From Acidobacteriota bacterium (GTDB lineage Bacteria; Acidobacteriota; Vicinamibacteria; Vicinamibacterales; SCN-69-37): 24,000 bases of DNA. The notes beneath the pieces were generated by a model that made no database searches, was not told the origin of the DNA, and saw nothing but the letters and a program-made list of their open reading frames with translations. The stretch spans positions 875-24,874 of the forward strand of contig JBLNGH010000339.1 in assembly GCA_050264575.1 (NCBI GenBank). The letters run 5' to 3'. Position numbers and translations under genes: made by a program. Shown piece by piece: positions 1 to 23,767 of the stretch (position 1 is the stretch's first letter; each line of letters opens with the position of its first letter).

Positions 1-2992
1 TGAAATCGCCTTCGCTGAGCAGCACCTGGCCCAGATCGTACGCGCCGTGAATCCGCGTCAGCTGCAGGCCATCGGGCGCCTGTCTGCCAAGCCGTTCGAT
101 CGTCGTCATGAGCTGATCGCGGCCGGCCAGCAGCGTCTGGATGAGAGTCGATGTGCCCGCGGGTGCGCGCTCGGCGGCCGAGCCGAGCGCGGCGAGCGTC
201 GAGTCGGTCTGCCGCCGTGTGCGTGAGACGAGCGCGCTGGTCCACTCGGCATCGAGCGCCGCGGTGCCGAACTCGGAGACGGCCTCGTCGCCGGCGAGCG
301 TGAGGTGCAGCTCGGCGGTGCGCCGTCCCAGCGTGGATGCCGCCTCGAGCGCGGAGCCGACCGTCCGCCGGGCGGCTTCCGGCACGTCTCCGGCCGAGAG
401 GGCTGGCGGTCGATCCCGCTGCGTCTCGCTCACGTCCCACGCGATCGCGCTCTCGAAGTAGCGCTCGAGCTCGCCGATCGCCTGGCGCCAGCCGTCCATC
501 TGATGCGGCACGAACGCGTGCAGGATCGCCAGCGTGGTCGTTTCGCCTGCCGTCGACGTGTACGCGATTGTCCCGGCCAGTCGCGGCGCGCGCGGGAAAT
601 GCGCGCGGTCCGTCAGGAAGCGGCCCATTTCGACTTCGTGATTCGGCCCCGGCCACAGCCGCCGCACCAGCTTCAGCACGAACCGCTCGCCAAACCGGAT
701 CGACGAGTTCGCGCGTTCGACGCTCGGGCTCACCGGCGCCAGATCGCCGTCCGGTGCCTGGGTCCGGATTTCGTCGAACACAGGCGTGCGCGATCCCTGC
801 AGCTGTCCGTGCCGCATGTCGGCGCTGCGCGTTTCGCCGATGACGGAGAACACCTCGCGCGCCTCGTCCGGATCGAGCGATGCATGCAGGATCCCTTTTG
901 CCGCGCCGGCAATTCGAGCGACGATGCCGTCTGGCGATTCCTGGACGATCACGTCAGCATGGGTGCCCGACGCCATCGCCAGCGGCACGAAGTAGCGATC
1001 CTCGCGGCCGTCCTCGAACTTGACGGCGAGGATCGTCGCCATGACCGGTTCCTTGCCGCCGCGCAGCGTGCTCCACTCGACGATTCTGGCGTCGGCGATC
1101 GCCGTGCCGCGCTTCTGGAACCAGCGCTGCCTGGCGAGGAACGGCGCCAGGTAGCGGCGCTCGAGCAGCGATCGCGCGCTGCCGGCCAGCGTGCGCGACC
1201 AGTCCTCGCCGAGCAGCACCGGCAGCGTCTCGATCTCCGATTCAGCGGCCGGGGCCAGCGGCCGGGCGGTCACCGGCGCCGGCGCCTGTCGCTTCAGCTC
1301 CAGCCAGTAGAACCCGTACGGCGCAAGCGTCAGGAAATACGGCGTCTCGCCGATGCGCGGGAGGTCGGTGCTGCCCGACATCTCGATCGGCACGAGACCC
1401 GAATACTTCGACAAATCCAGCGACACGGCCTGCATCGTGCGCGCCATGTTGGCGACGACGAGAATTGGATCCTCGGCATCGAGCCGGCGAATGAACGCGA
1501 AGACCCGGCGGTTTTCGGGACGGAGCAGCTCGATCGTCCCTCGTCCGAAGGTGCGATGGCGCTGGCGCAGCGCGATCAGCCGTCGCGTCCAGTTGAGGAG
1601 CGAATGCGGCGAGCGCTCCTGCGCCTCGACGTTGACGGACTGATATCCGTAGACCGAATCCATGACCACCGGCGCGTACAGCCGGGCCGGATCGGCGCGC
1701 GAGAAGCCACCGTTGCGGTCCGCGGTCCACTGCATCGGCGTCCGTACCGCGTTGCGATCGCCGAGGTACACGTTGTCACCCATGCCGAGTTCGTCGCCGT
1801 AATAGATGACCGGCGTGCCCGGGAGCGAGAGCAGCAGCCCGTTCAGCAGCTCGATCCGCGCCCGGCTGTTCTCCATCAGCGGCGCGAGCCGGCGGCGGAT
1901 GCCGGCGTTGACGCGCATCTGCGGGTCGGCGGCGTACGCCTGGTACATGTAGTCGCGCTCCTCGTCGGTCACCATTTCGAGCGTCAGCTCATCGTGGTTC
2001 CGCAAAAAGATCGCCCACTGACAGCTGTCGGGGATCTCCGGCGTCTGGTAGAGGATTTCGCTGATGGGATGGCGGTCTTCCTGCCGCATCGCCATGTACA
2101 GCCGCGGCATCAGCGGGAAATGAAAGGCCATGTGGCATTCGTCGCCGTCGCCGAAGTACGCGCAGACATCCGACGGCCACAGGTTCGCTTCCGCCAGGAA
2201 CATCCGATCGTGATAGCGCCCGTCCAGCTCGCGCCTCAGATTGCGGAGGACTTCGTGGGTTTCCGGCAGGTTCGCGCAGCTCGTGCCCTCGCGCTCGATC
2301 AGGTACGGCACGGCGTCGAGCCGCATGCCGTCGACGCCTTTGTCGAGCCAGAAGCGCATGACGCGCGTCACCGCTCTGCGGACCTGCGGGTTGTCGAAGT
2401 TCAGATCCGGCTGATGGTGGAAGAACCGGTGCCAGTAGTATGCGCCGGCCAGCGGATCCCACGTCCAGTTCGAGCGCTCGGTGTCGCTGAAAATAATCCG
2501 GACGCCCGCGTATTTCTGATCGGTATCGCTCCAGACGTAGTACTCGCGCTTGCGCGATCCGGCGCGGGCCCGGCGCGCCGCCTGGAACCACGGATGTTGA
2601 TCCGAGGTGTGGTTGATGACCAGCTCGGTGATGACGCGCAGCCCTCGCTCGTGCGCCTGATCCAGAAACGTCCGGAAGTCTTTCAGCGTGCCGTACGATT
2701 TGTGGACGCCTTCGTAGTGCGCAATGTCATAGCCGTCGTCGCGAAGCGGCGACGGGTAGAACGGCTGCAGCCAGATGCACGAGACGCCCAGCGACTGGAT
2801 GTAGTCGAGCTTGCGCGTCAGCCCGGCGAAATCGCCGACGCCGTCGTCGTCGCTGTCGAAAAAGCCCCGGACGTGGACCTGGTAGATGACCGCGTCTTTG
2901 TACCAGAGGCTAGGGGAGGTGTCAGGAGGACGGGGGTCGATTATGGAAAACTCGCCGGACTGCCTGGTAATGGTGTCCGGCGAGTTTCCCAC
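1..2992 (-). CDS. treS: Trehalose synthase (GH13, TreS) with C-terminal maltokinase-like domain; partial, 3' end runs off the left edge of the window
   Basis: Absent from the ORF track because it has no stop inside the window. Manual reverse-strand translation gives the canonical TreS blocks LWYKDAVIYQVHVRGFFDSDDDGVGDFAGLTRKLDYIQSLGVSCIWLQPFYPSPLRDDGYDI, VINHTSDQHPWF, GVDGMRLDAVPYL, FLAEANLWP, FLRNHDELTLEMVTDEERDYMY and LLLSLPGTPVIYYGDELGMGDN. The same frame at bp 2-58 reads TRIHGAYDLGQVLLSEGDF, which resembles the maltokinase HGDxHLGQVL block. The start is set at the in-frame GTG 2992-2990, the only canonical start upstream of the conserved WYKD block, so the start is uncertain. Confidence 0.85.
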   Translation of the reverse strand, partial: MGNSPDTITRQSGEFSIIDPRPPDTSPSLWYKDAVIYQVHVRGFFDSDDDGVGDFAGLTRKLDYIQSLGVSCIWLQPFYPSPLRDDGYDIAHYEGVHKSYGTLKDFRTFLDQAHERGLRVITELVINHTSDQHPWFQAARRARAGSRKREYYVWSDTDQKYAGVRIIFSDTERSNWTWDPLAGAYYWHRFFHHQPDLNFDNPQVRRAVTRVMRFWLDKGVDGMRLDAVPYLIEREGTSCANLPETHEVLRNLRRELDGRYHDRMFLAEANLWPSDVCAYFGDGDECHMAFHFPLMPRLYMAMRQEDRHPISEILYQTPEIPDSCQWAIFLRNHDELTLEMVTDEERDYMYQAYAADPQMRVNAGIRRRLAPLMENSRARIELLNGLLLSLPGTPVIYYGDELGMGDNVYLGDRNAVRTPMQWTADRNGGFSRADPARLYAPVVMDSVYGYQSVNVEAQERSPHSLLNWTRRLIALRQRHRTFGRGTIELLRPENRRVFAFIRRLDAEDPILVVANMARTMQAVSLDLSKYSGLVPIEMSGSTDLPRIGETPYFLTLAPYGFYWLELKRQAPAPVTARPLAPAAESEIETLPVLLGEDWSRTLAGSARSLLERRYLAPFLARQRWFQKRGTAIADARIVEWSTLRGGKEPVMATILAVKFEDGREDRYFVPLAMASGTHADVIVQESPDGIVARIAGAAKGILHASLDPDEAREVFSVIGETRSADMRHGQLQGSRTPVFDEIRTQAPDGDLAPVSPSVERANSSIRFGERFVLKLVRRLWPGPNHEVEMGRFLTDRAHFPRAPRLAGTIAYTSTAGETTTLAILHAFVPHQMDGWRQAIGELERYFESAIAWDVSETQRDRPPALSAGDVPEAARRTVGSALEAASTLGRRTAELHLTLAGDEAVSEFGTAALDAEWTSALVSRTRRQTDSTLAALGSAAERAPAGTSTLIQTLLAGRDQLMTTIERLGRQAPDGLQLTRIHGAYDLGQVLLSEGDF

Positions 2993-3012
2993 AATCGACG
3001 CCCCGTCCCCTC
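2925..3012. repeat. About 88-nt imperfect palindrome (arms 2925-2960 and 2975-3012, 14-nt loop) with GGACGGGGG / CCCCGTCC termini. It lies between the BNR-gene stop and treS and covers the predicted treS start codon.
   Basis: Left arm is GGAGGACGGGGGTCGATTATGGAAAACTCGCCGGAC. The reverse complement of the right arm is GAGGGGACGGGGCGTCGATTGTGGGAAACTCGCCGGAC. Hand pairing shows only a few mismatches or bulges. Confidence 0.7.
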
Positions 3013-5393
3013 TACTTAATGGAGCTCGCGTCGAGCGCCCAGATGCCCCGCCCGTACGTCGAGATCACGAGCATCTGGTCGCGCGGCTCGAACTGCAGGT
3101 CCGACACCTGGTTGGACGGCAGATTGCCGCCGAGCACTTCCCAGCGTTCGCCTCCGTTCGTCGAGACGTAGACGCCGAAGTCGGTGCCGACGTAGAGGAT
3201 GTTCGGGTTGCGCGGGTCTTCGCGAATCACGTTCACCGGACCCACCGGGATGTTCCCGGCGATGCTGCGAATCGTCCTCCCGTTGTCGGTCGACTTGTAG
3301 ATGTAGACGCCGAAGTCGTCGTCTTCGCGGCCGCGCTGCGTGATGTAGACCGTACCTTCGTCGTGCTGAGAGGGGACGACGCGCGAGATCCAGCGTCGGA
3401 CCGGGAGCTTGGATGTCAGTTCCGTCCACTCCTTGCCCGTATCGAGCGTGACGTGCAGCCGGCCATCGTCGCTGCCGACGTAGAGCAGTCCCTTGCGCTT
3501 CGGCGATTCGGCGAGCGCCACGATTGTCTGGTACGGAATCGCCGTCGGATTCTCGCCCATCTGCTCCTTCTTGTTGTCGGTCAGATCCGCGCTGATCTTT
3601 TGCCAGCTGTCTCCGCGATTCTCGGATCGATAGACCGACTGGAAGCCCGCGAAGATGATGCTGCCGTCGTGGGGCGAGACGATGATCGGCGCCATCCATT
3701 GCGCGCGCAGTTCCTGATCCGGATCCTTCGGCTGAATCGGCGTGTTGGTGCCTCCGCGTCCGCGGCCGCCGCCGCGGCCGCTCGGATCGGGCGGCGGGGT
3801 CGCGCCGAGGTCGGTCCGGCTGAAGTTGCCGTAGAAGCCGTGCGAGTACACGATGTTCGGATTGGTCGGATCGATCGCGTGGTTCGATCCTTCGCCGCCA
3901 GGCGCATTCTCGAAGTCGACGGCCGGGACGGCGCCACGCCCCTTGCCGGTATCGACGCGGCCGCGCCGGCTGCCGTGATCCTGAATCGATCCGTAGGCCC
4001 AGACGGGCGTGTTCGAATCGAGCGTCACGTTGTAGAACTGCGCGCCGCCCGCCGACACGGCAAATTTCCAGGTCTTGCCGCCGTCCTCGGACTGATAGAA
4101 GCCGCCGTCGTTGTTGTTATAGAGAATCGACGTGTTGCCCGGATCGATCCAGAGACCATGGTGGTCGCCGTGCATCCCGGTGACGCGCGAGAACGTCTGA
4201 CCGCCATCCCGGGAGACGTTGAGACCCAGGCCCATCGTGTAAATCGTTTTTTCGTCTTTCGGATCCACCCGGATCTGTCCGAAGACCCACCCGTACGTGC
4301 CGGAATGGCCGTTGAGGTAGTCAATCGTGGCCTGAGTCTTTCGACTGGTTTGCCGCCAGGTCTTGCCTCCATCGTCGGTCCGGTAGATGTCGGCACCCTT
4401 GATGAAGCCTTTGCCCGCCGGCATCGGCCGGCCGTACGCGTCATTGGTGCCCGGCTTCGGCACCACGCCGATCTCGTAGTTGTCGACGAAGGCGTACAGC
4501 ACGTTCGGGTTCGATCTGGAGACGTCGATCCCGATGCGGCCGCGGAACTCGGGCGCGGGAAGGCCCTGGCTCACGTCGTTCCAGGTCTTACCGCCGTCGG
4601 TCGTCTTCAGGATGCCGCCTTCTTTGTAGCCGGGCTCGACGCGCGGATCCGACCACTTGCGCCGCACGCGCTGCCAGAGTGCCGCGTACAGCGTGTTGGG
4701 GTCGCGCGGATCCATCACGAGATCGATCGCGCCGGTGCGCGGGCTGCGATACAGCACCTTTGTCCACGTCTTGCCGCCGTCGGTCGTCTTGAAGACGCCG
4801 CGCATCTCGTTGTCCGTCCACTCGTGGCCGGAAGCGGCCACGTACACGATGTCAGGGTTGGTCGGATGCACGAGGATCCGCGCGATCGTCTGCGTATCGG
4901 TCAGCCCCATGTGCTGAAAGGTCTTGCCGGCGTCGGTGGACTTGTAAATGCCGACCCCCGGCATCGACGCGCGAAAGATATTCGCTTCGCCCGTCCCGAC
5001 CCACAGAATGTCGGGGTTCGAGGGCGCGACGGCGAGATCGCCGACGCTCGTCGACGGCATGTCGTCGAAGATCGCCTGCCACGTTGCGCCGTTGTCATCG
5101 GTTTTCCAGACGCCGCTCGTCGCGTAGCCGGCGTAGATGCGCCGTTGACCGTTCTTGTCGGCGACGGCCGTATCCGTGGAGCGGCCGCTCACGTTCGTGG
5201 GACCCACGTACATCCATGAGGCCGATTTGTACGGCGACGCATCGCGCATCGAGCGATACGTGTCGTAGCCCTTGCGCAGGACTTCGGCATCCGCCCTGGC
5301 GGCCTGCTGCGCCCGCAGAGCGAGCGGAATGCTGCAGAGTGCCGCGAGAAGGACCAGCGAGAGGCGGCTGGCGCGCCCGAGGTGTCGGGTCAT
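3012..5393 (-). CDS. Secreted BNR/Asp-box repeat beta-propeller protein (sortilin/VPS10-like or GH74-like WD40/YVTN/BNR family)
   Basis: At least 10 Asp-box motifs (S/T-x-D-x-G-x-T-W/F) are present: TDDNGATW, STDAGKTF, TTDGGKTW (twice), RTDDGGKTW, SRDGGQTF, SEDGGKTW, ENRGDSWQ, LDTGKEW and STNGGERW. The start is moved to the internal Met at 5393 (MTRHLGRASRLSLVLLAALCSIPLALRAQQ), which gives a classical signal peptide. The track ORF start at 5531 would overlap the divergent cysteine desulfurase gene. Confidence 0.8.
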   Translation of the reverse strand: MTRHLGRASRLSLVLLAALCSIPLALRAQQAARADAEVLRKGYDTYRSMRDASPYKSASWMYVGPTNVSGRSTDTAVADKNGQRRIYAGYATSGVWKTDDNGATWQAIFDDMPSTSVGDLAVAPSNPDILWVGTGEANIFRASMPGVGIYKSTDAGKTFQHMGLTDTQTIARILVHPTNPDIVYVAASGHEWTDNEMRGVFKTTDGGKTWTKVLYRSPRTGAIDLVMDPRDPNTLYAALWQRVRRKWSDPRVEPGYKEGGILKTTDGGKTWNDVSQGLPAPEFRGRIGIDVSRSNPNVLYAFVDNYEIGVVPKPGTNDAYGRPMPAGKGFIKGADIYRTDDGGKTWRQTSRKTQATIDYLNGHSGTYGWVFGQIRVDPKDEKTIYTMGLGLNVSRDGGQTFSRVTGMHGDHHGLWIDPGNTSILYNNNDGGFYQSEDGGKTWKFAVSAGGAQFYNVTLDSNTPVWAYGSIQDHGSRRGRVDTGKGRGAVPAVDFENAPGGEGSNHAIDPTNPNIVYSHGFYGNFSRTDLGATPPPDPSGRGGGRGRGGTNTPIQPKDPDQELRAQWMAPIIVSPHDGSIIFAGFQSVYRSENRGDSWQKISADLTDNKKEQMGENPTAIPYQTIVALAESPKRKGLLYVGSDDGRLHVTLDTGKEWTELTSKLPVRRWISRVVPSQHDEGTVYITQRGREDDDFGVYIYKSTDNGRTIRSIAGNIPVGPVNVIREDPRNPNILYVGTDFGVYVSTNGGERWEVLGGNLPSNQVSDLQFEPRDQMLVISTYGRGIWALDASSIK

Positions 5394-15755: not shown

Positions 15756-16415
15756 CTAGGGGGCCAAAACATCCGCGAACACAAACCCTTCGCGCTCGAC
15801 GATGACGCCGGGTTCGATCGCGATGGGATGACCGAACATCGGTCCGGAAAAACAGAAGGTATGAAACTCGCCGCGCTCGCCGCACGGGTCAACACCCGGC
15901 GGCAGCTCGGCGAGGAGTGACGAATCGAAGCGGCGCCCGGCGAACCGGCGATCGAGCTGCCGCGGATCCACGCAGGTGAGAACCGCGCCCAGCCCGGACG
16001 CAAGCATCTCACGCGCGAGCGCATCCGTCGGCCGTTTCCAGAGCGGAAAGATCGGATCGAGTCCGGTGCCCGCCAGCCGCGATTCGCGGTACTGCCGGAC
16101 GTCTTCGAGAAAGAGATCGCCGAACGCGACGTGCGTCAATCCTTCCAATCGCGCGCGCGCCATCGCATCACGCATCCGCGCCTCGTAAATGTCGTTCGGA
16201 CAGGGCGATGGAATCGGTACATTCCAGAGCGGCAGGCCGGCCGCCTCCGCTTGCGCTTCGACAAGCGTTCGCCGGACTGCGTGCATCGCCACGCGATCCG
16301 CCTCCGCGTTGAACGTGGTCAGCAACGCGTGCACCTGCACGGCCGGATCCTGCCGGAGCACATGCAGGGCCCAGGCGGAATCCTTGCCTGACGACCACGA
16401 CAGCAGCACTTTCAT
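15756..16415 (-). CDS. Dph6-related / MJ0570-like PP-loop ATP pyrophosphatase (adenine nucleotide alpha-hydrolase superfamily, ATP_bind_4 type)
   Basis: The N-terminus MKVLLSWSSGKDSAWAL carries the SxGKDS PP-loop. Also present are FGDLFLEDVRQYRE, PLWKR and CGERGEFHTF. The ATG overlaps the upstream stop (ATGA at 16412-16415). Confidence 0.7.
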   Translation of the reverse strand: MKVLLSWSSGKDSAWALHVLRQDPAVQVHALLTTFNAEADRVAMHAVRRTLVEAQAEAAGLPLWNVPIPSPCPNDIYEARMRDAMARARLEGLTHVAFGDLFLEDVRQYRESRLAGTGLDPIFPLWKRPTDALAREMLASGLGAVLTCVDPRQLDRRFAGRRFDSSLLAELPPGVDPCGERGEFHTFCFSGPMFGHPIAIEPGVIVEREGFVFADVLAP

Positions 16416-17443
16416 TGAGTCGTGGCCCGCTGAAGCGGCTGCGGCGCGAAGGCGGCTGGATGCAGCACGCGCGCCAGCCGCCGGATCGCCTCTGCGACGC
16501 GGGGGCCGGGAATCGACATGAGATCGTCGGCGAGGATGTAGATGCGTCCCGTGCGGACGGCGGGAAGCGACGGAAGCGCCTTCCAGACGCCGCGCTCGCG
16601 TTCAATCTTCTCCGGCGTCCACCCTGCGCTGGCATAGACCTCGATAATCACCTCGGGTGCGCGGGCGAGCACGGTCTCCGCCGACAGCTGCAGGCTCTGG
16701 CGCTTGAGGTCCGCAAACGCGTCCATTCCGCCCGCGGCTTCCAACATGTCGTGCATGAACCCGACGCCGGCGCTGGCGTACATGCTCCGGAGAGTGCCGG
16801 CTTCACGGCCGAAGAGCAACGCCGTTTTCGGTCGTGGTCTTCCCGATACCCGCGTCCGGATGTCCGCGATGTCGCGCTCGATCTCCGACGCGATCCGGTC
16901 CGCCTCCGGCGAGCGGCCGACGCGTTCTCCAAGCTTTCGAATCGTCATCGTGATGTCCGGGAGGCCGGCGTGCTGGTACTCGAACCGCGGAATTCCTGCG
17001 CGATCGAGTCGCGCGATCAGCTCCTGCTGGGTGCCGTAGACGACGACGAGATCGGGTTTGAGCGCGAAGATCCGCTCGACATTCGGATCGAGCAGCGCGC
17101 CGACGCGCTCGCGCGACGCCACCGCCGCCGGGTACGTGTCGTAACTCGACACGCCGACGACCTGGTCTCCCGCGCCGATGGCAAACAACATCTCGGTGAC
17201 GGCGGGAATGACGGAGATGATGCGGCGAGGACGCTGAAGAAGGACGCTTGTCGGTACGACGGGTACAGCAGGTACGACAGGTACGTCGGGTCCCTGGAAC
17301 GATCTGACGCTGGCCATCTTTCCTTTACTAAGGAAGCTGGCGAGCGTCAGGCTCCTTGGACCTGACGTACCCGGCGTACCTGATGTGCCTGACGTACCGA
17401 CGCCGAGCGACGCGATCAGCGCGAGCGAAGCGAGGAGTTTCAT
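16412..17443 (-). CDS. ABC-transporter periplasmic substrate-binding protein, BtuF/FhuD-like (cobalamin / Fe3+-siderophore family)
   Basis: The start is set at the internal Met (MKLLASLALIASLG signal peptide), whose ATG overlaps the permease stop (ATGA at 17440-17443). The mature part, RIISVIPAVTEMLFAIGAGDQVVGVSSYDTYP ... LKPDLVVVYG, is typical of Peripla_BP_2. The 149 aa upstream in the track ORF overlap the permease gene and are Arg-rich shadow sequence. Confidence 0.8.
   Translation of the reverse strand: MKLLASLALIASLGVGTSGTSGTPGTSGPRSLTLASFLSKGKMASVRSFQGPDVPVVPAVPVVPTSVLLQRPRRIISVIPAVTEMLFAIGAGDQVVGVSSYDTYPAAVASRERVGALLDPNVERIFALKPDLVVVYGTQQELIARLDRAGIPRFEYQHAGLPDITMTIRKLGERVGRSPEADRIASEIERDIADIRTRVSGRPRPKTALLFGREAGTLRSMYASAGVGFMHDMLEAAGGMDAFADLKRQSLQLSAETVLARAPEVIIEVYASAGWTPEKIERERGVWKALPSLPAVRTGRIYILADDLMSIPGPRVAEAIRRLARVLHPAAFAPQPLQRATTQ
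17250..17401. repeat. Inverted pair of 44-nt arrays with 9-nt period (GTACCNNNN x4), arms 17250-17293 and 17358-17401 with a 64-nt spacer, lying in-frame inside the BtuF-like CDS
   Basis: Arm A is GTCGGTACGACGGGTACAGCAGGTACGACAGGTACGTCGGGTCC. The reverse complement of arm B is GTCGGTACGTCAGGCACATCAGGTACGCCGGGTACGTCAGGTCC, which matches 37/44. The arms encode GTSGTSGTPGTSGP and GPDVPVVPAVPVVPT between the signal peptide and the mature domain. Confidence 0.8.
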
Positions 17444-18447
17444 CGTTTCCCGATTAAAAACCAGAGCACGAACGGCCCGCCGATGACCGCCGTCACCACG
17501 CCGACCGGCAGCTCGACGGGCGCGAGGATCGTACGCGCGAAGACGTCGCAGACGACCAGAAATGCCGCGCCGAAGAAAGTGGACGCCGGAAGGACCAGCC
17601 GGTGATCGGCGCCCACCACCAGCCGGACCAGGTGCGGGACGATGATGCCGACGAAGCCGATGGGGCCGCCGACGGACACGGCCGCGCCTGTCGCAAGCGA
17701 CCCGCCGAAGAACGCCATCCGCTGAGCGCGCCCGACGTCGACGCCGCGCGAGCTCGCCGCGTCGGTGCCGAGCGTGAGCAGATTGAGCGGACGGGCGAGC
17801 CGCGCGAACAGGCCGAATGCGACGACCACGAGCGGAAGGGCGGAGAAGATCGGCCGGTAGCTGACGACGTCGAGATCGCCCATCAGCCATCGCAGCGCGC
17901 GAAAGATTTGCGCGAAGTCGCTCAGGTACTGGACGAAGAGAATGAGCGCCGAGAAGAACGCGTTGAGCGTGACACCCGCGAGCAGAAGGACCGTGGAGGA
18001 CAGCCCCTGGTGACGCGCGGTCGCCAGAAAGTACACGACCATCACGGCGACGAACGCGCCCATCAGGCTGGCGGCTTCGACGCTTCCGAGCGGCCAGGCG
18101 GCACCGAAGGTGATCGTCACCATCGCGCCCAGCGCGGCGCCCGACGAGACGCCGAGCGTGTACGGCGTGGCCAGCGGATTGCGAAGCAGGCCCTGAAAGA
18201 CGACGCCGGCCGCGGCCAGCGTTCCGCCGACGAGCGCCGCCGCCAGCGCGCGCGGCAGCCGCGCGACGAAAAAAATCTGCGCGTCGACGTTGTCGGTAAA
18301 CGCGACGGACGGGTTGAAGACCTGTCGGAAATGGATGGGCGTCGATCCGATAAACGGCGCGATGAGGACCGCGGCGATCATCGCCACGAAGCAGACCGCG
18401 ACGATCGGGAGGCCGCGTCGCAGGGGTAAGACGACCTCGGGTGTCAT
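17440..18447 (-). CDS. ABC-transporter permease, FecCD/BtuC family
   Basis: The protein is polytopic and has FecCD-type sequence ([44 protein letters not shown] ... [16 protein letters not shown]). The start is set at Met17 of the track ORF (18447), whose ATG overlaps the ATPase stop (ATGA). Confidence 0.85.
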   Translation of the reverse strand: [335 protein letters not shown]

Positions 18448-19271
18448 GTCCTGCTGCGATCGTCCGCGGAAATGACCCCCGAGGTCTTGTCCCACGAAAT
18501 GAAGCCCGAGGTCATCAGCATCTCCGCGTCCAGGTCGTACAGGGCGGCGATCTGCGACGCGGTCAGCACGTTGGCGGGAGCGCCATCGCTCAGGACGCGT
18601 CCTTTGGAGAGAAGGATCACTCGCGTACAGACCGATGCCGCGAAGCGCAGGTCGTGCGTCGTGAGCACGATCGTGACGTGCCGGCGATCGTGCAGCCGCC
18701 GCAGGAGCGCCGCGACTTCGAGCTGGTAGCGGAGGTCGAGCGAGGCGGTCGGCTCGTCGAGCAGCAGGAGCGGGGGCGCGACGGCGTCCCGTCCGTCCTC
18801 CAGCTGCGCGAGCGCCGACGCAATCATCACGCGCTGCTTCTCGCCGCCGCTGAGCGTGCGAAACGGCCGGCGGGCAAGCTCCGCCGTTCCCGTGGCCTCG
18901 AGCGCCGACATCGCCGCCCCGAAGTCGTCCGGACCCTCGACTTCGAACACACCGAGATGCGGGTATCGTCCCATGAGGACGATTTCGATCACGCTGTAAT
19001 CGAACGCGAGCACAGTCTCCTGGGGGACGACGGCGAGTCTGCGCGCGAGAACGCGGCGGGGTACGGTCTCGATTGGTACGCCGCCCAGGCGGACGTGCCC
19101 GGACGTTGGCCGCAGCGCCCGCGCGATCAGGCGCAGAATCGTGGTCTTGCCCGAGCCGTTCGGGCCGAGGATGCCGACGAGGCCGCGCTCCTCGATCCCG
19201 AACGAGACGTCATCGATGATCTGCGGACCGCCGCGGTACGCAAACCGGAGGTTAGCGGCTTCCAGTAACAC
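18444..19271 (-). CDS. ABC-transporter ATP-binding protein (FecE/BtuD-like)
   Basis: Walker A is GPNGSGKTT, the signature is LSGGEKQRV, Walker B is LLLLDEPT, and the H-loop is TTHDL. Confidence 0.9.
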   Translation of the reverse strand: MLLEAANLRFAYRGGPQIIDDVSFGIEERGLVGILGPNGSGKTTILRLIARALRPTSGHVRLGGVPIETVPRRVLARRLAVVPQETVLAFDYSVIEIVLMGRYPHLGVFEVEGPDDFGAAMSALEATGTAELARRPFRTLSGGEKQRVMIASALAQLEDGRDAVAPPLLLLDEPTASLDLRYQLEVAALLRRLHDRRHVTIVLTTHDLRFAASVCTRVILLSKGRVLSDGAPANVLTASQIAALYDLDAEMLMTSGFISWDKTSGVISADDRSRT

Positions 19272-21597
19272 GGACCCCCACGAGGCCGGAGCGGCCGAGC
19301 GCCGGAAAACCGAACACCTCTTCGTACGCGCGATCGAACAGGTTCGTCACCCGTCCGAACACCTCGACGCTGCGGCCGACGCGGAACGCGGCTCCGATCG
19401 TGACCGTCGTATAGCCGGGGTTCTCGAACACCTGATCGGCGAAGCTCGGCTCGAGATCCTGCGTGTGGCTGCGGCCGTTGACGAGGGCGAATGCCGACGC
19501 ACGGCCCTGCGTCCAACCGAACTCGACAGACACCTGATGGCCAGGACGTCGAATCAGCGGATCGCCGACGTGAAACGGGTTCGGCGCCTCCGTTTGGGCG
19601 CCATCGACACCCAGGATCTCGGTGTTGAGCCAGGTCCACGCGGAACGGATCGAGACGGCCGCGGAGGGACGCCACGTCAGGCCTGTTTCGAGTCCCCACG
19701 CGCGCGCGTTCGCGATGTTGTCGCTGCGATAACGGCTGGCGCCCGAGAAGGACGAGCCAACCGTCACAATCAGATCGTCGTACCAGTTGGCGAACGCCGT
19801 GGCGTCGAGACTGATCGTCGATGCCGCAAAGGCCTGTTCGATGCCTGCATCAAAGCTGCGGCTCCGTTCCGGCTTCAGCCCGGGATTATCGGTAAACCCG
19901 ATTTCGAACGCGGTTGGCGGCTTGATGCCCGTGCCGGCTCCGGCACGCACCTTCGTCCACGTACCGTTTTCAGCCAGCTTGACGAACCAGGCCGCCGAGA
20001 CCTTCGGATTCACAGACCAGACAACGTCGGTGTCGAGGGCCGGCCGAGGCGTGAACGCGAACGGATCGGCCTCGAGTGCCGCGCGCTCGATGCGTTCGAC
20101 GCGCGCGCCGGCGTTCACGAACCCACGCCGGCCTCCGACGGGCCGCGCCTCGATAAACCAGCCGTTGATTGAACGTTTGACGGGAATCTGCTTCGCGTCC
20201 TCGCCAGTGATGAACGTGTTGTCTGCACGTTCACGCACGAATTCCCATCCGGCCGAGAGATCGACCCGGCCTGCGGAGGCGTCCAGTTGATAGCGACCGG
20301 TCACGCGTGACGTCCGATCGTCCGATCCGCCGAAGGGGCTCGTGAAATCGTTCTCAGCGCCGCTCCACGTGACGTGCCCGCGATGCGTGATCTTCGCGGT
20401 CCGAAACGTGCCCATGCCCGCGGCAGAACTGAACTGCGTGACGCCGCGCGAGATCAGATCGATACCCTCGTAGCGATCGAGCGGATCCGATCCGTAGGGT
20501 CCCGGAAACCCGCGTTCCGAACGGCCGGAGCGGACATCGATCCGAACCTGGCGTCCGGGATTGTCCGACCAGCCAAGGCTGCCCGCACCGCTCGCGCGCT
20601 GGTACTCGTCGTTGGCGACTGGACCGCCGCTGCCCGGAAACACCCGCGAGTCGCCGTCCGTGGAGAGGCCGTCGAACGACAAGCCCCATCGCCAGGCATT
20701 CCGGCTGCCGGCCGTGGAGGCGGTTGCTCGATATGTCCCGTTGCTGCCCGTCTCGAACGAGCCGCTTGCACGCGTCGGCCGGCCGTGCTGGGTGATCACG
20801 TGGACAATCGCGCCGATCGCGCCGCCGCCATACAGCGCGCTCTGCGGTCCGCGCACGACCTCGACGCGTTCGATCTCGCCGGTCCCGAACTGGCCGAAAT
20901 CGACGAATCCACCGAACGCATTCTGCGGCACCCCGTCGATCAGCACGAGCGTGTAGTCCGATTCGCCGCCGCGCGGGAAGACCGACGTCACGGCGCCGCG
21001 GCCTCCGGACGCGACGACGGCAAGGCCGGGTACCTGGCGCAGAACGTCGGGAAGCGACTCGATCTGTTGGGCGTCGATCTTGGCGCGCGTGATGACCGAG
21101 ACGCTGTCCGTGACCCGTGTCAGCGGCTGTTCGACCTGCGAGGCCGACACAACGATCGATTCGTGGACGGCGCTAGGCGCCACGGTCAGGTCGATCTCGA
21201 TGGTGTCCCCGGTCTTCATCGTGAACGGTTTCGGCGCGCTTCGCAGTCCCGGCGCGGACGCGACGATCTCGTAGTCGCCCGCGGGGACGTCGATCGGCCC
21301 GAACTGCCCGTTGGCAAGCGTACGGGTCGAGGTGATCACGGTATTCCGCCGCAGCACCAGCACGTCGGCGGCCGCGACGGGCCGCGCGTGCGCGTCGATC
21401 ACGCGTCCGCGCAGCGATTCGGCCGCGGCCGTCGCCGCTGTGGCGAGCGGCATGACGGTCACGAGAATACTGAGAAAAAGACCGCGAAGCCCGCGACGTG
21501 AGGAGCGGCGCTGAGCGGGCGAGTGGGGCTTTGGCCCCACGAGCGAGTAAAGGAGAGATGGAAGCGACGGGCCGGAACGGCCCAGCGTGCGGGGCAT
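19252..21597 (-). CDS. TonB-dependent outer-membrane receptor with N-terminal CarboxypepD_reg-like domain (BtuB-like by context)
   Basis: A signal-peptide-like N-terminus is followed by LRGRVIDAHARPVAAADVLV...NGQFGPIDVPAGDYEIVASAPG (carboxypeptidase regulatory fold). The plug reads VSVITRAKIDAQQIESLPDVLRQVPGLAVV...VFPRGGESDYTLVLIDGVP. A long beta-barrel region follows. GAGGAGG lies 6 nt upstream of the ATG, and the gene is directly downstream of a cobalamin riboswitch. Confidence 0.85.
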   Translation of the reverse strand: MPRTLGRSGPSLPSLLYSLVGPKPHSPAQRRSSRRGLRGLFLSILVTVMPLATAATAAAESLRGRVIDAHARPVAAADVLVLRRNTVITSTRTLANGQFGPIDVPAGDYEIVASAPGLRSAPKPFTMKTGDTIEIDLTVAPSAVHESIVVSASQVEQPLTRVTDSVSVITRAKIDAQQIESLPDVLRQVPGLAVVASGGRGAVTSVFPRGGESDYTLVLIDGVPQNAFGGFVDFGQFGTGEIERVEVVRGPQSALYGGGAIGAIVHVITQHGRPTRASGSFETGSNGTYRATASTAGSRNAWRWGLSFDGLSTDGDSRVFPGSGGPVANDEYQRASGAGSLGWSDNPGRQVRIDVRSGRSERGFPGPYGSDPLDRYEGIDLISRGVTQFSSAAGMGTFRTAKITHRGHVTWSGAENDFTSPFGGSDDRTSRVTGRYQLDASAGRVDLSAGWEFVRERADNTFITGEDAKQIPVKRSINGWFIEARPVGGRRGFVNAGARVERIERAALEADPFAFTPRPALDTDVVWSVNPKVSAAWFVKLAENGTWTKVRAGAGTGIKPPTAFEIGFTDNPGLKPERSRSFDAGIEQAFAASTISLDATAFANWYDDLIVTVGSSFSGASRYRSDNIANARAWGLETGLTWRPSAAVSIRSAWTWLNTEILGVDGAQTEAPNPFHVGDPLIRRPGHQVSVEFGWTQGRASAFALVNGRSHTQDLEPSFADQVFENPGYTTVTIGAAFRVGRSVEVFGRVTNLFDRAYEEVFGFPALGRSGLVGVRVTGSR

Positions 21598-21659
21598 CGG
21601 GACCTCCTCGGCGTGTCTGCGCGCCGATCCGCGCTGAGTGATTCAGCGTCGGGTGAAGG

Positions 21660-21945
21660 ACGGCCCGGTGACCAGGTATCCTGACTCGCGAATCATCGCC
21701 GGCATCCGCGTCTTCCCACGCCGTGGAAGTCCCACGCGCGCAGTGACGGCCGGGGAATCGATCTATCGATTCATCGATCTATCGATCTATTGAAAATCAC
21801 TTGTCCTGGCACGCAAGGTCTTCAAAAGATCGATAGATCGATAATCCGGTAGATCGATTCACCCAGTCATTTTGGGACGCCGACTCCTCGCTGACAGTGG
21901 CGGCACCGTGTGGGATTTGCACCCACTTCCCTTGCCGCCGGGCGA
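21660..21945 (-). promoter_or_regulatory. Cobalamin (AdoCbl-type) riboswitch in the 5' leader of the TonB-receptor/ABC operon
   Basis: On the minus strand, AAGGGAAGTGGGTGCAAATCCCACACGGTGCCGCCACTGTCAG (plus 21891-21933) matches the GGGAA...GGTG.AAATCC...CCGCCACTGT core. GGCCGTCACTGCGCGCGTGGGACTTCCACGGCGTGGGAAGAC lies downstream and resembles the GCCACTG...GGGAAG element. The B12 box AGTCAGGATACCTGG is at plus 21672-21686. GCCCGG (21938-21943) can pair with CCGGGC (21662-21667) as a closing helix. A candidate -10 box TATACT is at plus 21965-21970. Confidence 0.8.
21752..21864. repeat. 113-nt near-perfect palindrome built from ATCGAT-containing 8-nt units (ATCGATCT / ATCGATAG), embedded in the riboswitch between the core and the B12 box
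   Basis: The plus strand reads GGGGAATCGATCTATCGATTCATCGATCTATCGATCTATTGAA, then a 25-nt loop, then TTCAAAAGATCGATAGATCGATAATCCGGTAGATCGATTCACCC. The arms are complementary except for one 7-nt internal patch, one mismatch and one bulge. Confidence 0.85.
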
Positions 21946-22017
21946 ACGTCGGTTGTCTGGCCGGAGTATAGCATGTCAAAATGAGCCGACAGTTCGACTC
22001 GAGCCCCACGGAGGAGC

Positions 22018-22518
22018 ATGAGCAAGAGCTCGACGGTCACCGCCCGGGCGCAACCGGTCGCGGATCTGACGTCGGTCACCGGCGCCCTGCGAGTCCACAG
22101 CGAGACGTTCACGCTTCAGACGGATCAGCGGTTTCACGTCATCGATCTCACCGAGCGCGTGATGACGCTCGTGCGCGATCTGCGAATCACCGAAGGGCTC
22201 GTCAACCTGTTCTCGATGCACACGACGTGCACGGTTTTCATCAACGAGTACCAGGCGGCGCTCGTCGCCGACATCAAGACCTTCCTCGAGCGCGTCGTCC
22301 TGCGCGACGCGGAGTGGCGGCACAACGATCCCGAGCACTCGGACTGCGATCGGATGAACGCCGATTCGCATCTGCGCGCGATGCTGCTCGGTCACAGCCT
22401 CACGGTCCAGGTGAGCGGCGGCGAAGTCGTGCTGGGCCAGTGGCAGCGCATTCTCATGGCCGAGCTCGACGGTCCCCGCGCGCGCACGCTGCGCGTCATG
22501 GTGATGGGCGTCGGATAA
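22018..22518 (+). CDS. yjbQ: YjbQ/UPF0047 family protein (secondary thiamine-phosphate synthase-type enzyme)
   Basis: Family pattern blocks are HVIDLTERV, GLVNLFSMHTTCTVFINE, D...FLERV and NADSHLRAMLLGHSLTVQVSGGEVVLGQWQRILMAELDGPRARTLRV. GGAGGAG lies just upstream of the ATG. The overlapping 187-aa track ORF (21981..22544) is Arg-rich shadow sequence. Confidence 0.85.
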   Translation: MSKSSTVTARAQPVADLTSVTGALRVHSETFTLQTDQRFHVIDLTERVMTLVRDLRITEGLVNLFSMHTTCTVFINEYQAALVADIKTFLERVVLRDAEWRHNDPEHSDCDRMNADSHLRAMLLGHSLTVQVSGGEVVLGQWQRILMAELDGPRARTLRVMVMGVG

Positions 22519-22555: not shown

Positions 22556-23733
22556 GAGCCAAGAGCTCTGAGAGGCCCTTCATGCTCCGTGCCCCTTCAT
22601 GCGATCTCGCTGACATCGATGTCAAGCTGACCGCCGGCGAACGGCTGTCGTTCGACGACGGCGTGCGTTTGTTCGAACATCCGGACCTGCACGCGCTCGG
22701 CGTGCTCGCCAACCGCGAGCGCGAGAAGCGTCACGGCGCGGTCACGTACTACAACTACAACCTGCGTCTCGAAGCGACGAACGTCTGTTCGGCGAGCTGC
22801 CTGTTCTGCTCGTTTGCGCGCCTCCGTCCCGGCGACCCCGGCGCGTACACGATGTCGATCGAGCACGTGCTGGACAAGGTTCGCGAGCGCGCCGATCAGC
22901 CGCTCACCGAAATCCACATCGTCAACGGCCTGCATCCCGGGTTGCCGTTCGACTACTACATCGACCTCCTCCGCGGGATCAAGCGGCTGCGGCCCGACCT
23001 TCATCTGAAGTGCTTCACGGCGGTGGAGATCGCGTTCTTCGCCGACACGTACGGCATGACGGACGTGGCCGTGCTGCGCGCGCTCATGGACGCGGGCCTC
23101 GATTCGCTGCCAGGCGGCGGGGCGGAGATCTTCGCCGAGCGCGTCCGGCGCAAGATTTGCCACGACAAGGCTGACGCGGATCGGTACCTCGCGATTCATC
23201 GCGCGGCGCATGCGCTCGGCCTGCGCTCGAACATCACGATGCTCTACGGGCATATCGAGACGATGGAGGAGCGGGTCGATCACATGCTGCGCACGCGCGC
23301 GCTGCAGGACGAGACCGGCGGACTGCAGGCGTTCATCCCGCTCGCGTTCCATCCGGACAACAACCAGATGCGCAAGCTGCCGGCGCCGACGGCGAGCGAT
23401 ACGCTGCGCGTGCACGCGGTCGCGAGATTGATGCTCGACAACGTGCCGCACATCAAGGCGTTCTGGATTGCGGCCGGCGTCGAGGTCGCGCAGCTGGCGC
23501 AATGGTACGGCGCCGACGATCTCGACGGCACGGTGCAGGAAGAGCGGATCTACCACATGGCCGGTTCACGCACGCCGGAATCGCTGTCGACCGCGGACAT
23601 CCGGCGCCTGATCCTCGCGTCCGGCCGGACGCCGGTCGAACGCGACACGTTGTACAACCGGGTGTACGGGGGACGGGGGTTTTCAACAGATCCGCCTGGT
23701 CGGGGCCGGAGGTCCCTCGGGCCTCCGGCCTGA
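22552..23733 (+). CDS. mqnE: Radical-SAM futalosine-pathway enzyme, MqnE-like (aminodeoxyfutalosine synthase; MqnC not excluded)
   Basis: The radical-SAM cluster motif is NVCSASCLFCSF (CxxxCxxC). Other blocks are TEIHIVNGLHPGLPFDYY, LHLKCFTAVEI, LDSLPGGGAEIF, NITMLYGHIETMEERVDH, LQDETGGLQAFIPLAFHP and DDLDGTVQEERIYHMAG, ending in RTPVERDTLYNRV. The GTVxEE block favours MqnE by eye. The alternative start ATG 22582 has a better SD (GAGAGG, 6-nt spacing). The last 21 codons and the stop lie inside a palindromic element. Confidence 0.75.
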   Translation: MGAKSSERPFMLRAPSCDLADIDVKLTAGERLSFDDGVRLFEHPDLHALGVLANREREKRHGAVTYYNYNLRLEATNVCSASCLFCSFARLRPGDPGAYTMSIEHVLDKVRERADQPLTEIHIVNGLHPGLPFDYYIDLLRGIKRLRPDLHLKCFTAVEIAFFADTYGMTDVAVLRALMDAGLDSLPGGGAEIFAERVRRKICHDKADADRYLAIHRAAHALGLRSNITMLYGHIETMEERVDHMLRTRALQDETGGLQAFIPLAFHPDNNQMRKLPAPTASDTLRVHAVARLMLDNVPHIKAFWIAAGVEVAQLAQWYGADDLDGTVQEERIYHMAGSRTPESLSTADIRRLILASGRTPVERDTLYNRVYGGRGFSTDPPGRGRRSLGPPA

Positions 23734-23767
23734 CCTGTGCGGATCTGTGGAAAAACCCCCGTCCCCC
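23668..23767. repeat. 100-nt near-perfect extended palindrome with GGGGGACGGGGG / CCCCCGTCCCCC termini, overlapping the 3' end and stop codon of the mqnE-like gene
   Basis: The outer arms are GGGGGACGGGGGTTTTCAACAGATCCGC (23668-23695) and GCGGATCTGTGGAAAAACCCCCGTCCCCC (23739-23767). The middle pair is GGTC/GACC. The inner pair is GGCCGGAGG (23704-23712) and CCTCCGGCC (23722-23730), with loop TCCCTCGGG. Confidence 0.85.

Follow-up and report, generated by a model that had tools for sequence, protein, structure and literature searches.

Heptamer repeats of the short tandemly repeated repetitive (STRR) type reportedly occur inside the gene for RNase P RNA in heterocyst-forming cyanobacteria where, following what Vioque is said to have described in 1997, they lie in helix P12 and activity is retained; among earlier cases of such repeats within structured RNAs, this one comes closest. 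For riboswitches, the closest parallel is the pneumococcal trp leader, in which a BOX element is located between two T-box riboswitches, apparently without loss of regulation (Croucher et al., 2011, PMC3049150). Concerning the repeats themselves, the nearest published class is represented by the GGGAATC heptamer arrays of Xanthomonas: 70-75 of them per genome form convergent inverted pairs capable of adopting a stem-loop, they are transcribed and mostly intergenic, being located between co-directional open reading frames (ORFs) and near the upstream stop codon, their position is conserved between related species while their length is variable, and GGGGA(C/T)T arrays occur in Nostoc (Rehm et al., 2015, PMC4692102). 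Here we consider a window of 24,000 nt (the whole stretch of DNA that was analyzed, G000:C339:875-24874, to which the coordinates below refer unless another contig is named) from G000, a 6.05-Mb Vicinamibacterales metagenome-assembled genome (MAG) of a soil acidobacterium, with 682 contigs and 90% completeness, in which the leader of a vitamin B12-uptake operon carries a cobalamin riboswitch with a palindrome of tandem ATCGATCT words inside its aptamer. The best explanation as a whole, which we hold to be probable, is that a repeat belonging to a dispersed family of this genome became lodged in the loop of a side hairpin, left the core of the riboswitch intact and is carried along as a tolerated passenger. 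Like the STRR repeats in RNase P RNA, it is a short tandem repeat of the genome within a peripheral helix of a conserved structured RNA, but the host there is a ribozyme gene and here a cis-regulatory riboswitch, and repeat family and phylum differ. Like the BOX element of the trp leader, it is a dispersed, tightly folding repeat co-transcribed in a riboswitch leader, but it lies within the aptamer, in a peripheral hairpin loop, and not between two complete riboswitches. A literature search returned no description of a riboswitch aptamer that contains a dispersed repeat, and the passages searched in PMC4692102 mention no riboswitch-borne copy of the Xanthomonas or Nostoc arrays.

The leader matches the cobalamin riboswitch model RF00174 on the minus strand at 21654-21971 (48.8 bits vs. 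a gathering score of 31.5, E 1.4e-9), the match extending over the entire model (positions 1-189) and leaving 141 nt in the region of the palindrome as an unaligned insert. An earlier note on this DNA, made from its letters alone, had recognized in the leader the full set of cobalamin riboswitch signatures, and this significant match agrees with it: all the motifs it quoted are present, and the conserved core (the GGGAA junction, the GGUGCAAAUCC loop and the B12 box) was aligned to the consensus with posterior-probability marks of '*'. The leader also includes the GGGAAG..GGTGCAAATCC motif and a long P6 (P7-P11) extension with a hairpin of the GCCACUG...GGGAAG type (GUCACUG at 21741-21747 and GGGAAG at 21712-21717), in the same layout as in 16 relatives. 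A long P7-P11 extension is typical of the Cbl-I riboswitches specific for adenosylcobalamin (AdoCbl), in which it helps to form the AdoCbl site (PMC7367189). A scan of the genome detected RF00174 at this locus only. The program cmscan took ACUGGG, 5' of the palindrome and part of the native stem, for the CCACUG motif and therefore shifted the insert by one helix in the 3' direction; this was corrected by aligning the leader to near-identical relatives, which placed the palindrome 5' of the true GUCACUG. In the predicted fold CUGGG (21862-21866) pairs with CCCGG (21750-21754), and the palindrome occupies the loop between them.

The palindrome had been described in the same note as an almost perfect hairpin of 113 nt, made of octamer units containing ATCGAT and richer in AT than its surroundings, and each of these properties was recovered. 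The inverted repeat arms (21752-21794 and 21821-21863) measure 43 nt, are 86% complementary and spaced by 26 nt, and show a direct periodicity of 8 nt; the core of the element, from the first to the last ATCGAT, covers 21757-21858, and its ends are GA...TC. The 14-nt double word ATCGATCTATCGAT (one mismatch at most) occurs three times in the window against an expectation of 0.02, and the G+C content is 40% in the element as compared to 65% in the remaining aptamer. Folded as RNA, the palindrome reaches -68.5 kcal/mol, vs. -35.2 +/- 3.8 kcal/mol for 200 shuffled sequences (z -8.8), none of which was as stable, and within the predicted fold of the 382-nt leader it folds independently.

Arms of about 45 nt and an inner core like those of the riboswitch palindrome recur at more than 30 unlinked loci of the genome, in line with the suggestion of the earlier note that other arrays of this kind be looked for. 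BLAST of the palindrome against the genome gave 97 matches, ATCGAT clusters mark about 35 loci, and an arm profile search retrieved 76 arms, assembling into about 31 pairs and about 10 solo arms, several of them at contig ends. The consensus of the arms is G(A/C) followed by ATCGATCTATCG-nnnn-ATCGATCTATCGATCTATTGAAgAgC, with a conservation that declines toward the centre, and since in 14 of 16 elements the two arms do not pair at the nnnn block, this block constitutes an internal loop, common to the family. The length of the centre varies between about 20 and more than 100 nt, and the copies show no relatedness there, with the exception of the riboswitch copy (C339) and the one on contig C76, which form the closest pair of the family (85.3% identity over 102 nt, centre included). 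On these sequence features, the palindrome in the riboswitch is a copy of a dispersed repeat family and not a native riboswitch helix. The hexamer ATCGAT is itself frequent in the genome, with 3373 occurrences vs. 568 expected from base composition, and the family contributes only about 250 of them (an estimate from about 35 loci times about 7).

The comparison was extended to the orthologues of the receptor gene in two congeneric genomes (G001 and G002) and, at the level of family and order, in many more. RF00174 matched the leader at 16 of the 17 orthologous loci scanned, and the four printed alignments showed a model insert of 17-28 nt at one spot, directly 5' of GCCACUG/GUCACUG. The stretch between the CACUGU-A..G anchor and GYCACUG, 36-64 nt long in most leaders and 77-118 nt in three, always has at its end a hairpin directly adjoining GYCACUG, whose sequence varies among the leaders (CCGGCG-loop-CGCCGG in G001 and CGGGGAAC-GU-GUUCCGCCG in G002), hence in all 17 leaders it represents a lineage-typical branch of P7-P11, conserved in position and variable in sequence. 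Nothing but a short hairpin is present at the site in the two congeners and in 14 other genera, the remaining leader being 86% (G001) and 80% (G002) identical to that of G000 over the aligned columns. The view that the palindrome sits in a variable peripheral region is therefore upheld, both by the place of the P7-P11 extension in this riboswitch class (PMC7367189) and by the 36-118 nt of this hairpin-bearing stretch in relatives; between the two options that had been left standing, an inserted element and a lineage-specific extension, the more than 30 unlinked copies and the short, variable hairpins of the orthologous leaders support the former, and the same palindrome was not found conserved in all leaders, as it would be in an ordinary peripheral helix.

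Closer relatives were obtained by scanning metagenomes with a conserved 26-mer. Contigs L115 and L116 are 92-94% identical to the window over 8-12 kb, which indicates a sister species, and carry a stub of 21-25 nt of TCGA/ATCGAT words between the same TGA and TC flanks. A metagenome scan with the species-specific flank gave 0 matches, and an exact-protein look-up with the neighboring YjbQ yielded two further contigs. One of them (ENA, farmland) is 99.8% identical over 4243 nt, with 7 differences, and has the identical full palindrome with the same junctions and the same 102 nt; the other (Logan) is 100% identical and terminates within the palindrome. The occurrence of the identical palindrome in an independent assembly shows that it is real. 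That the repeat was mis-threaded into the leader during assembly of the MAG, a thought invited by its 682 contigs, several of which break at repeats, has next to no probability, given that the assembly from the other sample, with 7 of 4243 positions differing, preserves the junctions and that the flanks are the two halves of one conserved hairpin. The window holds a second palindrome of 100 nt (23668-23767), of another family (GGGGGACGGGGG..UUUUC.ACAGAUC type), which is retained at full length in the sister-species contig L116 (roughly 90% identity by eye); with this neighbor being full length in both species, the difference at the riboswitch site represents a discrete event. A gain in the lineage of G000 would require the fewest events.

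The words present at the site in relatives could also be read in another way, namely that the palindrome grew in place by slippage from a loop of ATCGAT words and is a home-grown extension of the riboswitch. The sister species has its 21-25-nt TCGA/ATCGAT run at the exact spot, and the stubs of L115 and L116 differ by a 4-nt slip; G001 has GATGTTCGATCC at the site and G015 ATCGATCGG; moreover, ATCGAT being self-complementary, any ATCGAT array would pair with itself. We nonetheless deem this origin very improbable, as the element includes the non-repetitive inner core of the family (UUGAAGA...GACAAG..UUCAAUAG), a centre in common with the C76 copy, at 85% overall identity, and the arm layout of the family down to the unpaired 4-nt block, a combination which slippage could not have produced independently. 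Insertion of a family copy thus remains the preferred reading of the site.

With respect to its consequences, the non-coding ATCGATCT-word repeat occupies the apical loop of a short hairpin branching off the P7-P11 (P6) extension, directly 5' of the conserved GUCACUG...GGGAAG hairpin, in the sole cobalamin riboswitch detected in the genome. Being its own reverse complement, the repeat is expected to zip up on itself in the transcript, and it would lengthen the side hairpin by about 45 base pairs directed away from the four-way junction in which the ligand binds. The core of the aptamer and the B12 box are intact, as are the btuB-like uptake operon and the expression platform, Shine-Dalgarno sequence included, and for this reason the repeat most likely does nothing more than extend a peripheral stem. 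The AdoCbl switch most likely still works, with the repeat as a tolerated passenger and not a part of the sensor. It is unlikely, in our estimation, that the insertion altered or crippled regulation, either by RNase III cleavage or by slowed or misdirected folding of P7-P11 near the adenosyl pocket: none of the conserved positions is lost, the same allele occurs in two samples, the riboswitch is the only one for B12 detected in the genome and has an intact operon behind it, and relatives tolerate 36-118 nt at the site. Such an effect would be in keeping with the about 43 pairs per arm, with few mismatches, with the contribution of the P7-P11 extension to the AdoCbl site of Cbl-I riboswitches (PMC7367189) and with an Rfam score 11-14 bits under those of the congeners.

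Some observations weigh against a harmless passenger derived from the family. The copies in the genome are all at most 85% identical to the riboswitch copy, so that no donor is visible, and this, together with the stub of the sister species and the TCGAT in the loop of G001, would also fit an older insertion that has collapsed several times; the stub and the TCGAT of G001 fit as well a seed of words later converted to the full element. An RNA duplex of about 45 base pairs could be a substrate for RNase III, and its cleavage would alter expression. Finally, the RF00174 score is lower than in the congeners (48.8 vs. 59.5 and 62.6 bits), which the large insert would explain, but damage could also be hidden behind it.

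As regards the range of the family, an exact 22-mer was found among GTDB representatives in a single Vicinamibacterales MAG only. In the 71 genomes of the GTDB family, arm matches (two mismatches at most) amounted to 60 in G000, 90 in G002 and 4 in G001, and to 0-2 in each of the other 68 genomes, while paired copies number about 31 in G000 and about 45 in one congener. Several copies (C402, C384, C305, C509 and the two on C168) occupy orthologous sites in G002 and/or G001, and are thus present in two or three species of the genus; at such sites the inner arms are conserved, the centres scrambled and the outer words species-specific. Other sites differ in occupancy: at C25:15201 the element is present in G000 and G002 and the site is empty in G001, and the site of G000 corresponding to the L064 element of G002 is without an element. 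No pair of copies in the genome is more than 85.3% identical, so that the family gives no indication of a recent burst. Judging from these comparisons, the family is restricted to the genus and old, and its copies have been gained or lost since the species split. Two gene junctions have different words in two species, i.e., ATCGAT at C169 ~2990-3100 vs. CATGAAG at L074:7409-7532, and ATCGAT at C76:1930-2031 vs. the GACCUCGGGUUUC type at L120:~1430-1490.

Two further ideas on the site itself were discarded. The 10-nt flanks of 31 copies gave 2.68 matches vs. 2.81 in shuffled pairs (p = 0.71), therefore their complementarity is no higher than in shuffled pairs and the riboswitch site reflects tolerance and not a targeting of hairpin loops. 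An outer TGAC..GGGGA extension of the element was also rejected, since the TGAC at C25 is the stop codon of the upstream gene and the flanks in the riboswitch are the native stem.

The location of the copies, as judged with a crude GC3-based ORF finder, was intergenic in 31 of 32 cases, and 19 of the 32 are flanked by co-directional genes, as a rule no more than about 1-35 nt from the stop and start codons. One copy is in frame within the 643-aa UvrC (G000:C279:19342-19468, L088:2343-2469), where it divides the match to the Pfam UvrC RNase H domain into two stretches. This preference for gene junctions, the retention of several copies at the same site in three species with conserved arms and scrambled centres, and the presence of GATC and ATCGAT in each word would be expected if the repeat had been recruited as a module providing a second control input, be it a protein-binding array, a GATC/ATCGAT methylation cluster or a signal for mRNA stability or processing. 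Such a recruitment appears very unlikely, considering that the 80-90% complementarity of the arms about equals neutral decay since the ancestor of the genus and that the riboswitch copy is absent in all relatives, whose leaders are otherwise the same; we also know of no binding protein for the word hairpin. A passenger tolerated at a permissive position is the more probable status of the riboswitch copy.

The family shares with the Xanthomonas GGGAATC arrays (PMC4692102) the convergent arms of tandem short words (here with an 8-nt period), the intergenic location (here 31 of 32, 19 between co-directional genes) and the sites common to related species. Unlike GGGAATC, the ATCGATCT octamer is itself palindromic (ATCGAT), and as it has no G-tract, a potential for quadruplexes is absent; unlike those arrays, moreover, the ATCGAT copies have a common non-repetitive inner core and are accompanied by other words, at least ten word families being present in this genome. 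A resemblance to repetitive extragenic palindromic (REP) sequences, i.e., bacterial interspersed mosaic elements (BIMEs) and the REPIN-RAYT system, lies in the small size, palindromic structure and intergenic location of the repeats, which number in the tens and sit at the junctions of operons either alone (solo arms) or as inverted doublets. Nevertheless the ends are G(A/C)ATCGAT and not the GTAG or CGTC tags that appear in the title of PMC3733652, and the arms are made of tandem words. No arm match, even at E = 10, was found within 1.5 kb of the 11 PF01797 (Y1 transposase) loci of G000, G001 and G002, so that a RAYT partner was not found in the three genomes.

[quoted passage not shown] Unlike MITEs, the family has hypervariable centres and copies whose pairwise identity does not exceed 85%. 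A target-site duplication was not seen in the flanks of 31 copies, the G(A/C)...(T/G)C ends being inverted and not direct. A parent insertion sequence with the same ends was not found in the 90%-complete assembly, in which no arm pair encloses a transposase (the C234 ORF being judged by eye). At G000:C234:984-1514 two inverted ATCGAT arms surround 531 nt with an ORF of 89 codons that has a signal-peptide-like start and looks, by eye, like a small secreted protein and not a transposase; its G002 counterpart, L060, has several arms. Overall the repeat is, as far as its sequence allows it to be classed, a word hairpin of REP/MITE-like habit lodged in a riboswitch aptamer.

The features of the locus are collected in Table 1. 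Downstream of the leader, the B12-uptake operon is composed of genes for a TonB receptor, an ABC ATPase, a FecCD permease and a binding protein, and spans 16412-21597 on the minus strand.

Table 1. Position of the repeat, the riboswitch and the neighboring genes in the window.
Feature	Position	Strand	Basis or remark
ATCGATCT-word palindromic repeat element, ~106 nt	21755..21860	(-)	One of about 31 paired copies in the genome
5' arm of the element (RNA sense): four 8-nt words, then UUUUGAAGA; the second word, ACCGGAUU, is the variable block of the family	21821..21860	(-)	Arm profile, E 1.8e-10
Centre of the element (loop and inner stem), sequence common only to the contig C76 copy	21795..21820	(-)	Pairwise comparison
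3' arm of the element (RNA sense)	21755..21794	(-)	Arm profile, E 2.9e-13
Cobalamin riboswitch aptamer, Cbl-I type with long P7-P11 extension, repeat included	21654..21971	(-)	RF00174
5' strand CUGGG of the native peripheral hairpin hosting the repeat	21862..21866	(-)	Corresponds in the alignment to the 5' stem of the short hairpin in G001, G002 and the sister species
3' strand CCCGG of the native peripheral hairpin	21750..21754	(-)	CCGGCCGUCACUG identical in G001
Conserved GUCACUG...GGGAAG hairpin of the P7-P11 extension	21712..21747	(-)	In 17/17 orthologous leaders
B12 box AGUCAGGAUACCUGG	21672..21686	(-)	Matches the model consensus, high posterior probability
TGCTATACT, candidate extended -10 promoter element directly upstream of the aptamer	21965..21973	(-)	Invariant in 7 aligned leaders; putative
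Shine-Dalgarno GAGGAGG (21603-21609) and receptor ATG (21595-21597)	21595..21609	(-)	Conserved in G001, G002 and the sister species
TonB-dependent receptor (BtuB-like), 781 aa	19252..21597	(-)	Pfam Plug, TonB_dep_Rec_b-barrel, CarboxypepD_reg
ABC ATPase	18444-19271	(-)	Pfam ABC_tran
FecCD permease	17440-18495	(-)	Pfam FecCD
Periplasmic binding protein, longest ORF	16412-17890	(-)	Pfam Peripla_BP_2
Divergent UPF0047/YjbQ gene, other boundary of the leader	22018..22518	(+)	Pfam PF01894

At the start of the leader, ATTTTGACATGCTATACT (21965-21980, minus strand) is nearly invariant across the leaders of seven genera; a simple sigma-70 scan of the leader region found no two-hexamer promoter, and a -35 element with proper spacing is absent beside TGCTATACT. 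At its other end, the loop of the GUCACUG...GGGAAG hairpin (21726-21730, minus strand) is the complement of the 5 nt separating the Shine-Dalgarno sequence from the ATG (21598-21602, minus strand), and the two partners covary, with GGGAC-GUCCC here, GGAAC-GUUCC in the sister species, G001 and L117, and AACC-GGUU in G015; the complementarity was not seen in G002 or in more distant leaders. A contact between the hairpin loop and the ribosome binding site may exist in this leader. In G000 the complementarity reaches 17 nt (88%) between 21717-21733 and 21599-21615, and the minimum-energy fold of the leader sequesters the Shine-Dalgarno sequence through this pairing. As a conserved feature the 17-nt pairing of aptamer and Shine-Dalgarno was dismissed, its long form not being conserved in G001 or G002.

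The ATCGAT family is one of several in this genome. A genome-wide scan for long palindromes, with arms of 30 nt or more and a pairing of 80% or higher, detected 245 of them, and in 134 the arms consist of tandem words with a length of 7-11 nt (7-9 nt in all except four of the palindromes). The words number at least ten, among them ATCGATCT, GGGCARA, CTYAGTT, CCGRRGTT, GGTGATKT, GGTAATT and CATGAAGGA, and an inner AAGAGC-like core is, by eye, common to several word families. The RNase P RNA of the genome has ordinary GC-rich inserts, and no word hairpin was found in it. The leader of G002 carries a different palindrome of about 90 nt (GGGGTCAGGTCTTGAATTGACG... type; L032:1372-1466) within the expression-platform hairpin, whose loop it occupies downstream of the aptamer and ahead of the Shine-Dalgarno sequence; the 171-nt stretch containing it folds at -103.8 kcal/mol, and copies of this type number 4 in G002 and 1 in G000, with a partial one in G001. 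A third kind of palindrome (GGGGACGGG...TGTGGAAAAC type) is located in G001 directly upstream of the riboswitch promoter (L031:994-1089). With different palindromes in G000, G001 and G002, each congener has its own repeat in the divergent intergenic region, and self-folding repeats have thus been accommodated on at least three occasions by hairpin tips and spacers of the leader.

As to how the word hairpins reach such sites, one possibility, which we regard as unlikely though worth stating, is that they spread without a transposase, a short run of words, e.g., the 21-25-nt stub, acting as a homology landing pad onto which an element is copied by gene conversion or template switching. This would explain the absence of target-site duplications and the ends that always fall within a word, as well as the species-specific outer words and the replacement of one word family by another at one gene junction; if true, the elements would preferentially enter at the loops of structured RNAs, where entry would be selectively neutral.

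Riboswitch aptamers are usually viewed as compact and tightly constrained, and the locus represents a natural insertion experiment, with a foreign hairpin of about 100 nt in the ligand-sensing domain. The matched alleles (the full element, the stub and the expression-platform palindrome of G002) would allow a direct test of the loading of P7-P11 against the sensing of AdoCbl, and the limit of this loading would be useful for riboswitch engineering. For annotation, large repeat inserts lower the scores of covariance models and can shift an alignment by one helix. More than 130 hairpins built of at least ten 7-9-nt words in one acidobacterial genome point to an under-described class of repeats, and what makes the present case valuable is its natural series of alleles, together with the question of how this repeat class spreads.

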